Assembly (NCBI GenBank): GCA_965247115.1
Contig: CBDFGR010000002.1
Coordinates: 2,048,001-2,112,000 of the forward strand
DNA length: 64,000 nt
DNA from: Myxococcota bacterium
GTDB taxonomy: Bacteria; Myxococcota_A; UBA9160; SZUA-336
Direction of reading: 5' to 3'
Part shown: piece after piece, positions 34,534 through 40,908 of the stretch
Numbering within the stretch: the first letter of the stretch is position 1
Layout of the letters: the number at the start of each line of letters is the position of its first letter
Program-made: the position numbers and the translations under genes
The notes under the pieces: model-generated
The model's database searches: none
What the model saw: only the letters and a program-made list of their open reading frames with translations
What the model was told of the DNA's origin: nothing

Positions 34534-35808
34534 CAGGCTGCGGAGAAAGTGACTGGTTGAGGGGTGGTCCTTCCGACGAGGGGGTTCACCGGCCGAGGGG
34601 CGGGGCGCGATTCCCGGTTCGAACCGGTCTTGGGCTCCGCTGATCGCGGGGCGGTTTCGCACATGACCTACGTGGCCTCCAGCAGCTTGCGGATCCGGAT
34701 CAGGTTGTAGGCTGCGGCCGTGAAGGTGAAGACCCAGCCGACCCGATCCGTGCCGCGGTGTCGGGTCTTGCGCATCAGCCCCACGGTCTTCATCCAGCCG
34801 AAGACCTCTTCCACCCGTTTGCGAAAACGCTGACTCAGTTCGTAGCCCCGGTGGCGCGTCGTCCGCCCGTCGATCGCGCTGCGTCGATTCGTCGTGTTCT
34901 GCGCCACGTGTGGGGTCACGCCCAACTCTCGAAGCTCTTCCACGAACCCCTTCGTGTCGAAGCCCTTGTCTCCGCCCAATGTCCTCCGACGCCCGCCTCC
35001 CAGACCTTCCACCATCTCGAGCGCCGCTTCGCGCTCCGCATATCCCGACGCCTGCGTGAGCTTCGCCGCGACCACCAAGCCGTTCCGGTTCTCCGTCACC
35101 ACGTGTCCCTGGTACGCGAGTCGGGCGCCTTGGCCTCTCATACCGGCGAGTCGTGCGTCGGGATCCGTCGTCGACGCATGCGTCTGGTTGCTCCGCTTCT
35201 CGCCTCGGAAGTTCACCGTCGGGTTGCCCGGGTCATCGTCGTCTCTCCGTTCCTCGTCCTTCCGTACGAAGCTCTTCTGGCTCGCCCACGCCTCGATCAG
35301 CGTCCCGTCTACCGTGAAGTGCTCCAACGACACCCATCCCTCGGTCTCGGCCTGCTCCAGCACTGCGTCGAAGAAGTGCTCGGCAATCTCGCCCTTGAGC
35401 AGCCGGTCTCGGTTCTTCGTGAACACCGTGGCGCTGAACACCACCTCGTCAAGCTCCAGACCCACGAACCAGCGATACAGCAGGTTGTACTCCAGCTGCT
35501 CCACCAGCTGCCGCTCGCTCCGGATGGTGTAGAGCACCTGCAGCAGCAGGGCGCGCAGCAGCTGCTCCGGGGGCACGGACGGGCGCCCTACGCCTCTGGC
35601 GTAGATCGCGTCGAAGCGCGGCGATAGCCGCTGCAGCGCCGTGTCGACCATGCGCCGCATCGCTCGAAGCGGATGATCATCCGGAATCCGCGACTCCAGC
35701 GACACGTAGCTGAACATCCCGCCCTGAAGCGTCCCCTGTCCTCTCACGCCTCCCCCTTTGGGGCTCGCTCCCAAGGTACCCTTCGATGAGGAGTTTTTCA
35801 GCAGCCTG
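34534..35808 (-). mobile_element. IS5-family insertion sequence, 1,275 bp, CTAG target duplication
   Basis: Ends CAGGCTGCGGAGAAA and TTTTTCAGCAGCCTG; CTAG at 34530-34533 and 35809-35812. Confidence 0.92.
34668..35747 (-). CDS. IS5-family DDE transposase
   Basis: GRPSVPPEQLLRALLLQ, RWFVGL, VDGTLI, GDKGFD and RKRVEEVFGWMK motifs; GTG start after GGAGG. Confidence 0.93.
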   Translation of the reverse strand: MRGQGTLQGGMFSYVSLESRIPDDHPLRAMRRMVDTALQRLSPRFDAIYARGVGRPSVPPEQLLRALLLQVLYTIRSERQLVEQLEYNLLYRWFVGLELDEVVFSATVFTKNRDRLLKGEIAEHFFDAVLEQAETEGWVSLEHFTVDGTLIEAWASQKSFVRKDEERRDDDDPGNPTVNFRGEKRSNQTHASTTDPDARLAGMRGQGARLAYQGHVVTENRNGLVVAAKLTQASGYAEREAALEMVEGLGGGRRRTLGGDKGFDTKGFVEELRELGVTPHVAQNTTNRRSAIDGRTTRHRGYELSQRFRKRVEEVFGWMKTVGLMRKTRHRGTDRVGWVFTFTAAAYNLIRIRKLLEAT

Positions 35809-36641
35809 CTAGGCGTTCACTCGCAGGGCTACCCGAACCTGTTCATCATGGGCGGCTATCAGGCGTCTTTTCGCTTCAACTTGACCGACGTTCTTCAGAC
35901 CCAGGGGGACCACATTGCGGCGTGCATTCACCACGCCCGGACCCACGGTTACCAGTCGATCGATGCGACGCCCCAGGCCGAGGAGTGGTGGGTGCAGGAG
36001 GTCATCGCGAACCGCGGCAAGACCTCTCGTAGCCAAGACTGCACGCCGGGCTACTACAACTTCGAAGGCGAGTTTCAGCGCAGGCAGGACGGCAACTACA
36101 ACGGCAGCTATCCCCAGTACCTCGCCCACGTAAAAAACGTGGGGGCGAACATCGAAGAGAACTTCGTCTTTACGAAGAGGTAGGCCTGGAACCGCTAGGC
36201 GAGCTCGCGGCCCTTCAGGTCTCCCTTCGCGCGCCACTTGCCTATGGATGACGGGGAGGCGGCGACCCACAAGCGCTGCGAAACCCCGAAGTCCCGGGAG
36301 ATCTATGCGATGTCAGCGTGCCGTTGTCACCGGCGTATCGAAACGAATCGTTTCGTCGCCCGCGGCGAGCGTCAGATGGCCAGCACCCGTAAATCGCTCG
36401 CTGGCGGCGACGGATAACGGGTCGACGTACGCAACGAGCATCTTGGGATCCACGCCCCATGGTATGCTCGCGCGCTTCATCGGCAATTCGGGGGATCCAA
36501 CCGGCGTTCAAGTGTGCATGCGGGTCCACAGGACCTGATCATGGCGGAGCCGATTGTTCGGCACTGCCTCAGTCTGAAATCTTGAGCGGCTGATCTCCCG
36601 CTACCGGACCATGCTGCATTTCTCTATCCTTGGCGCTAAGC

Positions 36642-36878
36642 ATGGCGAAGCGGACAAAGAAGAAGCGCCCCCGAGACGTGATCGGAAACGCCGTGCGCGT
36701 GATGCGGGTCGCGACTGGTGAGGAAGACGCGGAGACGGCGGAGGAGACCGAGGAAAGCCCTGCTGCCCAGCTCGGCCGGAAGGGCGGCGAGGCCCGGGCG
36801 AAGCGTCTGACTTCTGAGCAGCGGCGCGAGATCGCCAAGAAGGGCGCGGCGGCTCGCTGGGGCAAGCGTAAGGAATAA
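36642..36878 (+). CDS. Small basic protein (KRPRD...LGRKGG...EIAKKGAAARW)
   Basis: 78-aa Lys/Arg-rich ORF just inside the left TIR. Confidence 0.75.
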   Translation: MAKRTKKKRPRDVIGNAVRVMRVATGEEDAETAEETEESPAAQLGRKGGEARAKRLTSEQRREIAKKGAAARWGKRKE

Positions 36879-36881
36879 TCC

Positions 36882-36901
36882 GAGGAATATTCCTCTTGAC
36901 T
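36882..36901 (+). promoter_or_regulatory. 14-bp palindrome abutting a -35-like box upstream of the cargo pair
   Basis: Perfect palindrome GAGGAATATTCCTC (36882-36895) followed directly by TTGACT. Confidence 0.55.
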
Positions 36902-36960
36902 TTGGGTCGCTCTCTGGCGAAACTCCTGGCATCGCGCGACTGCACGATGGGGGTGAGCCA

Positions 36961-37512
36961 ATGACCAAGCGACCGATGATCGAGGTGATGGCTTGCATGG
37001 ATCCTTATCTCGATGACCTCAATGCGATCTGCCACGAGGCCGTGACGACGTATCAGGGAAAGGAATATAGCGATCGCGTCCGTTTGGAGCACACCCCAAG
37101 CACTCAGGCGAACTGCATCCACTCGCACATGGTCGCCGGCGCCCATCGCCTTCTCTCGGACCGGCCCGGTATCAGATTCCTCGAAGTGCGGGGTCTGAAC
37201 ATCTGGCTCTTCGGCTCGGAAGTGATCGTGAGGTTCAAGAAAATGGATCCCAGTGGACGGTCGCAAAACTACCAGACGCAGCAGGCAAAGGACTATGACG
37301 GCGGTGATGATCTGCCCGGCGTTCCACCGCCAGCTTGTCGGGTGACCGTTGGCTACGTGCTCGACCCACCGGGCTCTGGGATTCGCCGAGTTCAAGTCGC
37401 GCGTCCTTTCGGGCAGCAGGTCGAATGGTGTGCGGCGATCGTGCCTCCAGACGGGCGTCTGCCGGGAGCGCGGCTCTGGATCGATGTGACAAGTCAAAGG
37501 AATTTCGGCTAA
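36961..37512 (+). CDS. Hypothetical protein; candidate toxin partner of the XRE/ImmA-IrrE protein
   Basis: 183 aa with RFKKMD..G.S.NY.T.QA and VTVGYVLD segments; 21 bp upstream of the peptidase gene. Confidence 0.75.
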   Translation: MTKRPMIEVMACMDPYLDDLNAICHEAVTTYQGKEYSDRVRLEHTPSTQANCIHSHMVAGAHRLLSDRPGIRFLEVRGLNIWLFGSEVIVRFKKMDPSGRSQNYQTQQAKDYDGGDDLPGVPPPACRVTVGYVLDPPGSGIRRVQVARPFGQQVEWCAAIVPPDGRLPGARLWIDVTSQRNFG

Positions 37513-37533
37513 CTCATTCCGCGGAGCGGCACC

Positions 37534-38631
37534 GTGGACGAGTTCAATCATGAAATGCTCATCCTCGCGCGTGAAGCGCGAGGCTTCACGCAAAGTGCGC
37601 TGGCAATGCGTATCTCTGTCGGGCAGGGCACGCTCTCGAAGTTCGAGACAGGAGTCGCGCAGCCTCAACGCAGGACCGTCACCGCTCTGGCCCGCGCTCT
37701 CGGCTATCCAGAGGCGTTTTTCCGCGAGCCTGGACATGCCTACGGATTCCCGCCGTTCCATTACCGAAGGCGCAAGAAGCTGTCGGCGAAGGCGCTCGGT
37801 CGGATCATCGCGGAGATGAACATTCGGAGGCTTCACGTCCGCAAGCTTGCGCTCTCCTACCCCCCTCCTGCGAGCACCCTCATCCCCGAGATCGACATGG
37901 ATGAGTACCAGGGAACCGACAGCCGCGTGCCTTCCGCGGAGGATGTTGCGCGGTCAGTCCGCGAGGCTTGGATGCTCTCCAGTGGGCCAGTGCCGAACAT
38001 GATGGAGTTGATCGAGCAGAACGGCGGCATCGTGGTTCCCTTCGCGTTCAAGACCGCGCTGCTCGACGCGATGAGCCAGCGTATCGACGGAATGCCAGTT
38101 CTGTTCTTCGTGAACGTCAATTCACCTGCGGACCGGGTTCGCTACACGCTGGCCCACGAGTTGGGCCATATGTGCTTGCACACGACGGCACTCAAGAGCG
38201 ACGAAGAGATGGAGCGTGAGGCCGACGCGTTCGCGGGTGCGTTTCTCTTGCCTGCCGACGAGATCAAATCACAGCTACGACGCTTCGACCTCAGACACGT
38301 CGCGAACATGAAGGCGTATTGGAAGGTCGCCATGCAGGCGATCGCCGTGCGTGCTCATCGACTGAATCTCATCACGCCGTACCAGTACAAGATGTTCTGG
38401 ATCGAGATGGGGAAACTCGGCTATCGCCGACGCGAGCCGAACGAGCCCCTGCGCGAGACTCCGACGCTTCTGCACAGGATGGTTGCGTTCCATCGGAGCG
38501 AGCTTGGCTACTCGGTCGAAGATATGGCGAAACTACTCTGCCTCGAAGTGCCCGAATTTACGCTGATGTACGGGGCAGACGCCCCGTATGAGCCCGAAGT
38601 GGGTCGCAATCATCTTCGCCTCGTAAAGTGA
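37534..38631 (+). CDS. XRE-family HTH + ImmA/IrrE (M78) Zn metallopeptidase
   Basis: N-terminal LAREARGFTQSALA...LSKFETG HTH; RYTLAHELGH HExxH motif; EREADAFAGAFLLP. Confidence 0.92.
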   Translation: MDEFNHEMLILAREARGFTQSALAMRISVGQGTLSKFETGVAQPQRRTVTALARALGYPEAFFREPGHAYGFPPFHYRRRKKLSAKALGRIIAEMNIRRLHVRKLALSYPPPASTLIPEIDMDEYQGTDSRVPSAEDVARSVREAWMLSSGPVPNMMELIEQNGGIVVPFAFKTALLDAMSQRIDGMPVLFFVNVNSPADRVRYTLAHELGHMCLHTTALKSDEEMEREADAFAGAFLLPADEIKSQLRRFDLRHVANMKAYWKVAMQAIAVRAHRLNLITPYQYKMFWIEMGKLGYRRREPNEPLRETPTLLHRMVAFHRSELGYSVEDMAKLLCLEVPEFTLMYGADAPYEPEVGRNHLRLVK

Positions 38632-38641
38632 ACTTATTTGC

Positions 38642-38670
38642 TTGACGTTAGGCATAAAAGTTCATATAAT
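38642..38670 (+). promoter_or_regulatory. Near-consensus sigma70 promoter of the transposase
   Basis: TTGACG (38642-47), 17-bp spacer, TATAAT (38665-70); ATG at 38677. Confidence 0.8.
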
Positions 38671-38676
38671 GAGGCT

Positions 38677-39558
38677 ATGAACAGGTTGCCCCTTGAGAAG
38701 CGCGTCCAGATCCTATCGATGCTCTGCGAGGGCTCGTCTATGCGCTCGGTTTCCCGAGTGGCAGATGTGTCGATCAACACAGTCACCAAGCTTCTGGTAG
38801 ATGCCGGAAATGCTTGCGCCGGGTTCCATGATGAGACGGTTCGCGGCGTTAGGGCGCAGCGTATCCAGTGCGACGAGATCTGGTCGTTCTGCTACGCAAA
38901 GGCCAAGAACGTCCCAAACGCAAAGTCTGCGCCCGGATATGCAGGAGATGTCTGGACCTGGACCGCACTCGATAGCGATAGCAAGCTACTTGTTTCGTAT
39001 CTGATCGGTGGTCGCGATACAGAGTATGCCGTGGCGTTCATGAACGATCTGCGTTCGCGTCTTGCCAACCGTGTGCAACTCAGCACCGACGGGCATCGCG
39101 CCTATCTGAGCGCCGTCGAGGATGCATTCGCGGACGACGTAGATTATGGACAGATCATCAAGATCTACGGAGAGCCACCGGGTCAGGACAAGCGCTATGG
39201 CCCCGCTATCTACAAGGGTACGCGCAAGTCGCGCGTGATCGGCTACCCAGATCCGCGGTACGTTTCGACTTCGCACATTGAGCGCAGCAACCTCTCATTT
39301 AGAATGCATATGCGCAGATTTACGCGGCTGACCAATGCACACTCAAAAAAGTTCGCGAATCACTGTCACATGGTCGCTCTATACACAGTCTGGTACAACT
39401 TTGCTCGGCTTCACAAGTCCATACGGATGTCGCCGGCACTGGCTGCCGGGATCTCCGATCATCTGTGGGACATGGCCGATATCGTCGGGCTGGTTGAGAA
39501 GGCCGAAGCGTCACGCTCCCGGGAGCGTGGCTCCTACCAGAAACGAGTTTCAAACTGA
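38677..39558 (+). CDS. IS1-family DDE transposase (single ORF, N-terminal HTH)
   Basis: EGSSMRSVSRV HTH; QCDEIWSF, STDGHRAY and HIERSNLSFRMHMRRFTRLTNAHSKK motifs; stop lies in the right TIR. Confidence 0.9.
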   Translation: MNRLPLEKRVQILSMLCEGSSMRSVSRVADVSINTVTKLLVDAGNACAGFHDETVRGVRAQRIQCDEIWSFCYAKAKNVPNAKSAPGYAGDVWTWTALDSDSKLLVSYLIGGRDTEYAVAFMNDLRSRLANRVQLSTDGHRAYLSAVEDAFADDVDYGQIIKIYGEPPGQDKRYGPAIYKGTRKSRVIGYPDPRYVSTSHIERSNLSFRMHMRRFTRLTNAHSKKFANHCHMVALYTVWYNFARLHKSIRMSPALAAGISDHLWDMADIVGLVEKAEASRSRERGSYQKRVSN

Positions 39559-39588
39559 GGCAGTACCGATTGTTCTAGAGGAGTCCGA

Positions 39589-40908
39589 ATGGCTGTCCCG
39601 ATACGCTACAAGATGATCGGCGTCCTCACTACGGGGACGATGATCAACTACATCGATCGCGTGAACATCTCGGTTGCCGCTCCCCAGATCATGCAGGAGA
39701 CGGGCTGGGATGAGGGGCGCTTTGGGCTGGTCTTCTCCGCGTTTCTCGTCGGGTACGCCCTCTTTCAGTATCCCGGGGGCGTCATCGCTGACCGCTGGAG
39801 CGCCCGCAGGCTTCTTGCTCTCGCCTTCTTTGGGTTTTCCTTTTTCACCGCACTCACCCCACTGGGACAGGGTGGCTTTGTGCTCCTCCTGCTCCTGCGC
39901 TTCCTTGTCGGCGGCTTCGAATCGGTCTTCTTCCCCACAGTGGCGTCCCTCAACTCGAGGTGGATCCCGCGCCAGGAGTATAGCCGCGCCCAGACCGTCG
40001 CCCTTTCTGGTTCGGCGTTGGGGCAGATGGTGGCTTACCCGTCGACCGCTTGGATCATTGAGAACTACTCGTGGGAAACCGTCTTCTACTTCAACGCCGC
40101 GCTCGGTTTCGCCTGGCTGACGCTTTGGCTGTGGTACTCCACCGACACCCCGCGTGAGCACGCTTCGGTCAGTGCGGAAGAACTGCGAGAAATCGAGGAG
40201 GGACAGGTCGCCGGGCCGACCGAGCCGACCGAACCCGCTTCTGTCCCGCTTTGGACAATCTTGAGAACGTCGTCCGTGATCTCGCTGTGCTCAAGCTACA
40301 TGCTGTATGGCTTTATCGGCTGGATCTTCATCCTGTGGTTTCCGAGCTATCTCGTCCAAGCACGAGGCTTCTCGACGATGCAGATGGGGTTGGTGGGCAT
40401 GATACCCTACGTCGCCGGTGCCATCGGCCAGATAACGGGTGGTGTTATCTCCGATGCCCTGCTCAGACGGGGCTACAGCGCCCGGACGGCGAGGGCGCGC
40501 GTTCCCGGAATCTGGGTGGGCCTCTCCGCGCCGTTTCTCCTCGCAGCGGTCTTCGTGTCGTCGGCCGCGCTCTCGGTAGTGTTGTTCGGGTTGTTCTGGT
40601 TCATGCTTTCGCTGGCGATCTCCGGCTACTGGTCGCTCCCACTCGAGCTCAATCCGCGGCTGGTCGGTGCGATCTCCGGTGTGATGAGCACCTCCGGCAA
40701 CATGGCCGGTATCTTCGGGCCCATCACAGCGGGCATCATCCTGGCCCGCACGGGCAACTGGGACCTGCCGTTCTTACTGGCGGCGGGTCTCGCGGTTCTC
40801 TCCAGCCTGATCTTCATTTTCATGGTCTCGACCAAACACGTTGAAATCCCGGTGCTTGATGCGGTCACGGCTGAGGAAGCGCGAGACCGATCTGCTCGCA
40901 CGCTCTGA
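39589..40908 (+). CDS. MFS transporter (anion:cation symporter family)
   Basis: INYIDRVNISVA and GGVIADRW motifs, about 12 hydrophobic segments; GAGGAG RBS. Confidence 0.92.
   Translation: MAVPIRYKMIGVLTTGTMINYIDRVNISVAAPQIMQETGWDEGRFGLVFSAFLVGYALFQYPGGVIADRWSARRLLALAFFGFSFFTALTPLGQGGFVLLLLLRFLVGGFESVFFPTVASLNSRWIPRQEYSRAQTVALSGSALGQMVAYPSTAWIIENYSWETVFYFNAALGFAWLTLWLWYSTDTPREHASVSAEELREIEEGQVAGPTEPTEPASVPLWTILRTSSVISLCSSYMLYGFIGWIFILWFPSYLVQARGFSTMQMGLVGMIPYVAGAIGQITGGVISDALLRRGYSARTARARVPGIWVGLSAPFLLAAVFVSSAALSVVLFGLFWFMLSLAISGYWSLPLELNPRLVGAISGVMSTSGNMAGIFGPITAGIILARTGNWDLPFLLAAGLAVLSSLIFIFMVSTKHVEIPVLDAVTAEEARDRSARTL

Follow-up and report, generated by a model that had tools for sequence, protein, structure and literature searches.

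An intact, probable IS1-family passenger transposon with a predicted RosmerTA-like cargo in an exchangeable slot

Insertion sequences are usually thought to carry only their transposase. In the classic IS1 group, this transposase is encoded by insA and insB′, which are joined by a −1 frameshift; subgroups with a single open reading frame (ORF) also exist. The terminal inverted repeats (TIRs) of the family, about 20 bp in length, begin with GGnnnTG according to the ISfinder rule, and its target sites are duplicated over 8–9 bp. Single-ORF members with passenger genes form a group which we take to be the ISfinder subgroup named 'ISMhu11'. Tn7-like transposons and integrons are known as carriers of defence cargo, in which fixed core genes accompany a variable region rich in defence and toxin–antitoxin (TA) genes. 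The concept of the transporter IS (tIS) describes elements with passenger genes inside their TIRs (PMC9330008; PMC7986276). Here, we analysed a stretch of 64,000 nucleotides from a Myxococcota bacterium (hereafter the window), in which positions 36560–39567 hold a transposon of 3,008 bp coding for a small basic protein, the two cargo proteins ORF2 and ORF3, and a transposase. We consider it highly probable that this is an intact IS1-family passenger transposon that was inserted as one unit, with a cargo predicted to be a RosmerTA-like TA or anti-phage pair.

RosmerTA, as described in two reports, combines a zinc-peptidase antitoxin with toxins that are diverse and have no known function. Anti-phage activity was shown for some of its members, and removal of rmrA was not tolerated in the original screen (10.1101/2022.05.11.491447; PMC10440598). 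The second report also presents the ImmA-type antitoxin as a hub that pairs with many toxins, the toxin gene coming first in 58% of the pairs (PMC10440598).

Boundaries and mobility of the element

All coordinates without a contig name are positions in the window. The left inverted repeat (IRL) is identical to the reverse complement of the right one (IRR) at 18 of 20 positions. A repeat search extended the pair to 22 nt with 91% complementarity, which makes it the longest inverted repeat in the region. IRL begins with GGCACTG and IRR with GGTACTG, both in agreement with the GGnnnTG rule, and the element is flanked by a perfect 8-bp target site duplication (TSD). Four intact ORFs lie between the repeats, all in one direction and in the order small basic protein, ORF2, ORF3 and transposase; the TGA stop codon of the transposase (39556–39558) falls inside IRR. 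The original prediction had proposed precisely these features, namely 20-bp TIRs with 18 matches, a perfect 8-bp TSD, four co-oriented intact ORFs and a transposase stop within the right repeat, and all of them were reproduced from the sequence (Table 1).

The genome, which comprises three contigs (C1 to C3) and 5.17 Mb, contains three full-length copies of the element, located at C2:2084560 (the window copy), C3:1177672 and C2:763498. Each of the two other copies differs from the window copy by one base, with all four genes included. Given that two further copies span the full 3,008 bp, the pattern of TIRs and TSD is beyond chance.

Empty target sites were observed as well. In the contigs of runs X5, X7, X11, X12, X13 and X14, which belong to six studies with organisms coded B to G, the sequence runs from 36239 to 36549 and resumes at 39566. 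The 3,016 bp skipped in this way correspond to the element and one TSD copy (3,008 + 8), the joint comprises ten ambiguous letters, and the flanks are about 99% alike. Such contigs were found in six of the seven runs outside the likely source, the seventh (X17) covering right-flank pieces only and not the site itself. Run X1, which is probably the source sample, contains the element and no empty-site joint. The left flank beside an uninterrupted site was not found in the genomes of 40 relatives, and the plasmid collection held no record with at least 80% of the element. A chance pairing of repeats, or the ends of two different elements, is excluded by the matching copies in the genome and the exact 3,016-bp joint.

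The element moves as one unit, and the window copy is intact and recently active. The earlier proposal of a recent, self-contained vehicle is borne out by the near-identical full-length copies and by the exact empty site, for which a single GATTGTTC was found in contigs from six other studies.

Among the three copies, only the one in the window is flanked by a TSD. The copies at C3:1177672 and C2:763498 have a common left junction inside a DNA-methylase-like gene that is present in paralogous copies (ending ...YLFLLAKSRRYYY), whereas their right flanks are unlike. Beside the right end of the C3 copy, approximately 1.2–1.5 kb of the native locus is missing, and both copies are followed on the right by a 1.8-kb block, whose distance from the element is not the same in the two. 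We infer that these two copies go back to a single old insertion, which was later duplicated with its segment and suffered deletion next to it, and not to two independent hops.

The methylase-like gene (...HEYLFLLAKSRRYYY...) belongs to a multi-copy block with 97–99% identity that is found in at least five places, and both transposon copies sit at the same point within it. The sites of this block are C2:133971-137074, C2:235589-239432, C2:762589-763497, C3:1177111-1182416, C3:2564747-2565294 and C1:38138-41693, and the block may belong to a prophage or to some larger mobile element that is itself repeated. At C2:140273-140452 (loci L004, L005 and L161), some 3 kb away from a copy of the methylase repeat, there are two scrambled fragments of the left part of the transposon, which correspond to element positions 57–113 (inverted) and 261–364. 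They are probably the remnant of a rearranged copy.

Table 1. Features of the transposon in the window.
Feature	Position	Strand	Remarks
Left TSD copy, 8 bp, GATTGTTC	36552..36559		direct reading; single copy left in empty-site contigs
IRL, GGCACTGCCTCAGTCTGAAA	36560..36579	+	matches family consensus GGTAGTGTCTCAGTTTGA of relatives
Palindrome ATCCTTGGCGCTAAGCAT, motif ATGCTT-N6-AAGCAT, over small-gene start	36626..36643		candidate operator
Core small basic protein gene	36642..36878	+	78 aa from ATG 36642; 82 aa from TTG 36630
Cargo upstream motif: two direct GGAATAWT boxes, then CTTGAC	36872..36902	+	candidate operator plus −35
ORF2	36961..37512	+	183 aa; candidate toxin/effector (RmrT position), no known family
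ORF3	37534..38631	+	365 aa; XRE-type HTH + M78 (ImmA/IrrE) zinc peptidase, RmrA-like candidate antitoxin/repressor
Palindrome TTGCTTGACGTTAGGCAT over transposase −35	38638..38655	+	feature with promoter spans 38638..38670
Single-ORF IS1-type DDE transposase	38677..39558	+	293 aa; ATG 38677; ORF extends to TTG 38638
IRR, inward reading GGTACTGCCTCAGTTTGAAA	39548..39567	-	includes transposase stop codon
Right TSD copy, GATTGTTC	39568..39575		direct reading; TSD perfect, 8 bp

The insertion point lies 13 bp upstream of the start codon of an MFS-type transporter gene (39589–40908, 439 aa), which is thereby separated from its native upstream region. A paralogue of this gene with 86.7% identity is present at C3:825759-827003. 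On the other side of the transposon, a monooxygenase-like gene (35758–36183) is truncated by a copy of an IS5-type element, whose ORF occupies 34668–35774 on the minus strand. This IS5-type element of approximately 1,287 bp occurs in about 30 copies with 99.8–100% identity on all three contigs, and the host genome as a whole is very rich in IS elements. Left of 36239, the empty-site contigs are unlike the window; therefore, the left flank has been rearranged in the window. The description of the surroundings as an otherwise decayed region was checked for the left flank, in which the truncated gene and the IS5-type element were found.

The ORF2–ORF3 cargo

The third ORF had been proposed to encode an XRE/M78 peptidase, and this assignment was confirmed. 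ORF3 matches the Pfam families HTH_3 (4.4e-12) and Peptidase_M78 (4.7e-17), and the HExxH motif is present in its translation as HELGH. In PADLOC, 14 RmrA models were matched, the best of them at 5.4e-68 over residues 4–343. The window pair thus shares with RosmerTA the RmrA architecture, which combines an XRE-type helix-turn-helix (HTH) domain with an M78 zinc peptidase carrying HExxH. It also shares the two-gene layout, in which the upstream partner comes first as in toxin-first pairs, and in 12 related elements the corresponding slot is filled by a complete RosmerTA pair. In contrast to RosmerTA, ORF2 shows neither a match to an RmrT model nor profile similarity to the RmrT proteins in the slots of relatives, and the window pair forms a clade of its own. 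When compared with ORF3 of the window, the ORF3 homologues beside ORF2 homologues gave E-values of 1e-140 to 1e-165, and the slot RmrA proteins of other elements 1e-25 to 1e-36. The superfamily of ORF3 is very large, with 6,998 cluster representatives at E ≤ 0.001.

The linkage between ORF2 and ORF3 was assessed in 64 metagenome loci obtained from an ORF2 alignment search, a locus being testable for ORF3 when at least 150 bp are available downstream. An ORF3 homologue follows directly downstream of the ORF2 homologue in all testable loci (59/59). Of the 45 loci in which the upstream side could be tested, 33 have the small gene there, and of 35 tested downstream, 23 have the transposase. When only the 29 loci testable on both sides are considered, both core genes are present in 17 and neither in 6. 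Therefore, ORF2 and ORF3 constitute a module of their own, which resides mostly but not exclusively in the transposon. The motif of two GGAATAWT boxes and CTTGA accompanies this module in 54 of the 58 loci with an ORF2 homologue, approximately 52 nt upstream of the ORF2 start. In the window, the match spans 36873–36898, and its first box overlaps the stop codon of the small gene. Homology and gene linkage together suggest a defence or TA function for this cargo.

ORF2 has no match in Pfam or NCBIfam. Its 26 homologues at 42–52% identity are all unnamed and contain no Pfam domain. Its Atlas neighbours are all annotated as 'hypothetical protein', and the nearest cluster with a Pfam family is DUF5986 (12% of members, score 0.89), which is only a lead. 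The invariant residues include H56, R91, K93, K94, Y104, T106, Q108, D113, D135, R143, Q145, W156 and C157. The AlphaFold2 model of ORF2 (pLDDT 90.7, pTM 0.87) consists of three helices followed by a six-to-seven-stranded sheet.

Core genes and the slot in related elements

The top IS-family matches of the transposase are IS1 models, with scores below the curated cut-offs, and D66, D138 and E202 are invariant across 44 aligned transposases. Homologues in public plasmid records (64–69% DNA identity) are annotated as 'IS1 family transposase'. The element thus resembles the IS1 family in its best transposase matches, its GGnnnTG ends, its 8-bp TSD and the position of the transposase stop codon in IRR, and differs from it in scoring below the cut-offs and in the coding arrangement. 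The transposase is one uninterrupted ORF of 293 aa, and because the insA/insB′ frameshift pair is absent, this is not a classic IS1. As in a tIS, the passenger genes lie within the TIRs and move with the element, which is best classed among the passenger-bearing members of the IS1 family with a single ORF. The window family further has a conserved small gene near its left end, palindromes at the two core promoters and a TA/defence slot. The literature searched contained no description of the small gene, the paired palindromes or such a slot; the family may be catalogued in ISfinder or TnPedia, which lay outside this search. The transposase promoter, TTGACG-17-TATAAT (38642–38670), agrees with the consensus at 11 of 12 positions and ends six bases before the ATG.

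In a scan of species-representative genomes, at least 576 relatives of this transposase were confirmed among 586 candidate stretches, and the best 80 of them, with 59–72% identity, were analysed. Most of them come from Alphaproteobacteria, and further labels among them are Nitrospirales, Acidobacteriota, Opitutaceae, Latescibacterota, Desulfarculales, Thermodesulfobacteriota, Chromatiales and Janthinobacterium. Inverted repeats of the family type (consensus GGTAGTGTCTCAGTTTGA, with at least 15 of 18 matching positions) could be delimited in 36 of the 80 loci. A perfect 8-bp TSD flanks 32 of these 36 elements, and one more has a TSD with 7/8 matches. The delimited elements measure 1,933–4,888 bp (median 2,761), and every one of them is therefore much longer than a bare transposase gene. 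Members occur on plasmids as well as on chromosomes; the family is widespread and little described.

The small basic protein contains 22 K/R and 13 D/E residues and has no match in Pfam, NCBIfam or PADLOC. Its profile matches 78 of 84 loci (83 related loci and the window), always on the strand of the transposase and upstream of it, and most of the six loci without a match are cut by a contig end. The small gene is a core gene of the family. The consensus of the protein reads MPKGPKGEKRPADVIGNAV.VA.IATGE, followed by a variable linker and GRKGGKARA..LT.E.R.EIAKKAA..RW, and its invariant residues in a 44-row alignment include R9, P10, D12, R72 and W73. The AlphaFold2 model built from 44 sequences shows three helices (pLDDT 76.5), and a Foldseek search of the Protein Data Bank (PDB) with this model returned zero matches. 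Its Atlas neighbours have no Pfam family and bear only automatic names, 'putative RNA-binding protein' and 'putative histone H1', neither of which was adopted as a function.

Two side observations concern this protein. The P63C cargo proteins (324–393 aa) of nine related elements (L021, L032, L038, L046, L062, L067, L072, L084 and L086) gave secondary matches to the small-protein profile (E 5e-10 to 3e-4) and seem to share a motif with it. On the Mesorhizobium plasmid pB1-1-8 (L162), a lone small-protein gene annotated as 'RNA-binding protein' follows a GYD-domain gene, with no transposase downstream; it is either a remnant left behind by an element or a gene in use on its own.

With up to two substitutions allowed, the motif ATGCTT-N6-AAGCAT occurs exactly twice in the element of the window, at the start of the small gene and at the transposase promoter. 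Among 73 relatives, 44 have the palindrome approximately 39 nt before the ATG of the transposase, compared with 15 of 1,500 control windows. In relatives whose small gene directly follows IRL, this gene is likewise preceded by the palindrome. The two palindromes are thus candidates for a shared operator.

The interval between the small gene and the transposase, here called the slot, was examined in the 75 loci with both core genes. It is occupied in every one of them (75/75) and measures 528–2,567 bp (median 1,304). A GC3-weighted caller predicted 117 ORFs in these slots that reach 85 aa, and these were scanned; at this threshold, shorter cargo genes are under-counted. Genes for HTH and M78 peptidase proteins, all with an adjacent partner, are the commonest content (22/75 loci). 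They comprise 12 loci with complete PADLOC RosmerTA (RmrT and RmrA), 2 with RmrA only, and 8 with a PD-Lambda-2_B-like HTH-M78 gene whose partner of about 160 aa lies on the opposite strand. The slot is taken by P63C-domain proteins in 11 loci, by ClpP-like SDH proteases in 4 and by SocA/Panacea antitoxin pairs (Pfam) in another 4. DUF6941 is found in 3 loci, AAA_21/HEC-04 ATPases in 2 and nested IS5-type elements in 2, and a STAND NTPase with a Clp protease, DUF4760 and an aspartyl protease in 1 locus each. In about 24 loci, the content belongs to no family or shows a weak HTH only.

PADLOC (E < 1e-6) matched 37 of the 117 slot ORFs, spread over 25 of the 75 loci, compared with 4 of 117 flank ORFs. 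The latter were drawn at random from 172 candidates predicted with the same caller within 2.5 kb beyond the transposase (right flank).

To what extent the cargo follows its carrier can be read from a quick maximum-likelihood tree of 74 transposases (73 loci and the window; two loci were left out for lack of a clean start or length). On this tree, eight cargo classes require 37 changes, compared with a mean of 41.3 after shuffling and a possible minimum of 7; a count as low as 37 was reached in 6 of 200 shuffles. Since 37 changes are near the shuffled mean, there is hardly any coupling between cargo and chassis. Four pairs of closely related elements differ in their cargo (L043/L046, L047/L058, L035/L036 and L022/L028). 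Their DNA is similar over the small gene and over the transposase plus approximately 26–48 bp upstream of it, and in two pairs also at the left end, while the slots are dissimilar. Homology thus ends where the small gene ends and resumes about 40 bp ahead of the transposase start. The slot is exchangeable and holds unrelated gene sets in related elements.

The original prediction of fixed end genes around an exchangeable cargo slot is in line with these results: homologous transposases are accompanied by the small gene in 78 of 84 loci, their cargo varies, the tree calls for many changes, and homology stops at the slot in close pairs. The proposed enrichment of defence genes was likewise recovered, with four Panacea pairs in addition to the PADLOC matches. 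Enrichment and varied cargo together support the suggestion that the family may spread defence cassettes, the defence function itself being predicted from sequence.

A fourth and diverged member of the family is present in the same genome at C2:1797219-1800050 (L160). It is broken by one TGA in the transposase, and its small gene is intact. Its slot holds a 407-aa HTH-M78 gene (HEIEH) and a 162-aa ORF on the opposite strand, a layout that corresponds to the PD-Lambda-2_B-like class. Elements with different cargo therefore meet in one cell. In other related loci, a Shedu nuclease gene lies upstream of the cargo of the element (L010, Methylocapsa plasmid pRX1), and a RES/Xre toxin–antitoxin pair directly follows the transposase (L009, Acidiphilium plasmid). 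An additional ORF of 65–77 aa between IRL and the small gene in L029, L031, L043 and L049 would represent a second, smaller variable position.

The family has in common with Tn7-like transposons and integrons that it is a mobile platform in which the core genes are fixed and the variable part is enriched in genes for defence and TA systems. In contrast to them, the family is far smaller (1.9–4.9 kb), relies on one IS1-type DDE transposase, possesses neither targeting machinery nor an integrase, and usually holds one cassette per element. Furthermore, exchange appears to take place between the conserved arms and not at attC or att sites.

Function of the cargo and significance of the family

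Several results weigh against our reading of the locus as an IS1-family transposon with a RosmerTA-like cargo. The transposase scores 62.8 bits (3.9e-17) with NCBIfam NF033558 against a cut-off of 100, and 23.3 bits with Pfam PF03400 (DDE_Tnp_IS1) against a cut-off of 24.1. As two of the three copies have no TSD, lie in paralogous contexts and may go back to a single insertion, no more than one or two transposition events can be counted as certain. The related elements are kin, and the counts across loci are accordingly not independent of one another.

As for the cargo, ORF3 reaches 227 bits with the RmrA models, compared with approximately 400–630 bits for the slot RmrA proteins of relatives, and it also matches the NCBIfam spr1629 repressor/antitoxin family (3.9e-32, below the cut-off). 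ORF2 gave 0 PADLOC matches at E ≤ 0.1, all RmrT models included, and because it matches none of them, the rule of PADLOC itself would not call the window pair. A profile comparison with hhalign between ORF2 and 12 RmrT-type slot proteins of relatives yielded a probability of 1.5%. On the structural side, the top VIA-align matches of the ORF2 model are the restriction endonucleases NaeI (Z 6.8, rmsd 3.6, 132 aligned residues), EcoRV (5.4), SwaI (4.8) and BglII (4.5); SfiI, BglI, BstYI, RecU, Hjc and Cas4 were also matched, and Z-scores under 8, including the best of 6.8, may reflect a common arrangement only. A Foldseek search of the PDB gave nothing at E ≤ 0.001 (best E 0.018), and a canonical PD-(D/E)xK motif was not identified among the invariant residues. 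The model thus weakly suggests a restriction-endonuclease-like fold, and since all Z-scores fall within the middling range, this is a lead and not a finding.

ORF2 and ORF3 could alternatively form a stress-sensing switch of the element itself, comparable to ImmR/ImmA of ICEBs1, rather than a TA or defence pair. The HTH-M78 protein would then control expression of the transposase or the small gene, and its self-cleavage or activation would trigger transposition. The position of ORF3 directly upstream of the transposase promoter is compatible with such a role, as is the prevalence of HTH-M78 genes in the slots. Moreover, M78/ImmA takes its name from a conjugative-transposon anti-repressor that cleaves an HTH repressor (PMC10440598). 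However, the slot can be filled by unrelated genes (P63C proteins, proteases, Panacea pairs or ATPases) with the transposase promoter and its palindrome unchanged. ORF2–ORF3 has a conserved upstream motif of its own which is unlike the transposase palindrome, and in 6 of the 29 loci testable on both sides it stands without the small gene or the transposase. A switch would also leave the strictly linked ORF2 unexplained, and we regard it as improbable.

We give equally little credence to a cargo that is solely a selfish addiction module, killing cells that lose the transposon or its replicon and conferring no phage protection. The tightly linked, toxin/antitoxin-like pair of genes and the presence of the carrier on plasmids as well as chromosomes would fit this, but related slots also hold defence-type proteins that are not TA components (HEC-04 ATPase, PD-Lambda-2_B-like), and addiction and defence are not mutually exclusive. 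Related RosmerTA systems, moreover, have been shown to be anti-phage in both reports (10.1101/2022.05.11.491447; PMC10440598).

For the preferred reading, a RosmerTA-like cargo on an IS1-family carrier, we propose the following mechanism. The transposase would bind the GG...TG ends, move the whole unit and generate the 8-bp duplications. A role in transposition or in its regulation is likely for the small protein, which perhaps operates via the ATGCTT-N6-AAGCAT palindromes. ORF3 likely represses the promoter of the module via its HTH domain at the two GGAATAWT boxes and likely neutralises ORF2. The latter is a likely toxic effector, which possibly acts on nucleic acid in view of its weakly nuclease-like fold. 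ORF2 would be released when a phage infects the cell or the element is lost, and this may result in defence of the abortive-infection type, with stabilisation of the transposon as a side effect. Exchange of cargo likely occurs when elements residing in one cell recombine through their conserved arms.

A more far-reaching version of this proposal is offered only tentatively. In it, the family would be an IS1-derived, dedicated miniature carrier whose fixed chassis comprises the ends, an operator-linked small protein and a transposase with its own promoter. It would shuttle TA and anti-phage modules across bacterial phyla and swap them by arm recombination, the small protein would be an undescribed transposition partner or regulator, and ORF2 would represent a new RosmerTA-type toxin with a nuclease fold.

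The window copy, being intact and recently active, with a documented empty site, an uncharacterised toxin candidate and a conserved small protein, offers a good experimental entry point into this family. The family itself is a compact element of 2–5 kb, present in at least 576 places in species-representative genomes and in several phyla, which regularly carries one swappable TA or defence cassette. Should these cassettes function in the predicted way, such elements would provide a simple and frequent route for the spread and reshuffling of immunity genes. They would also constitute a natural catalogue of candidate systems, as approximately one third of the slots examined contain genes that belong to no known family.

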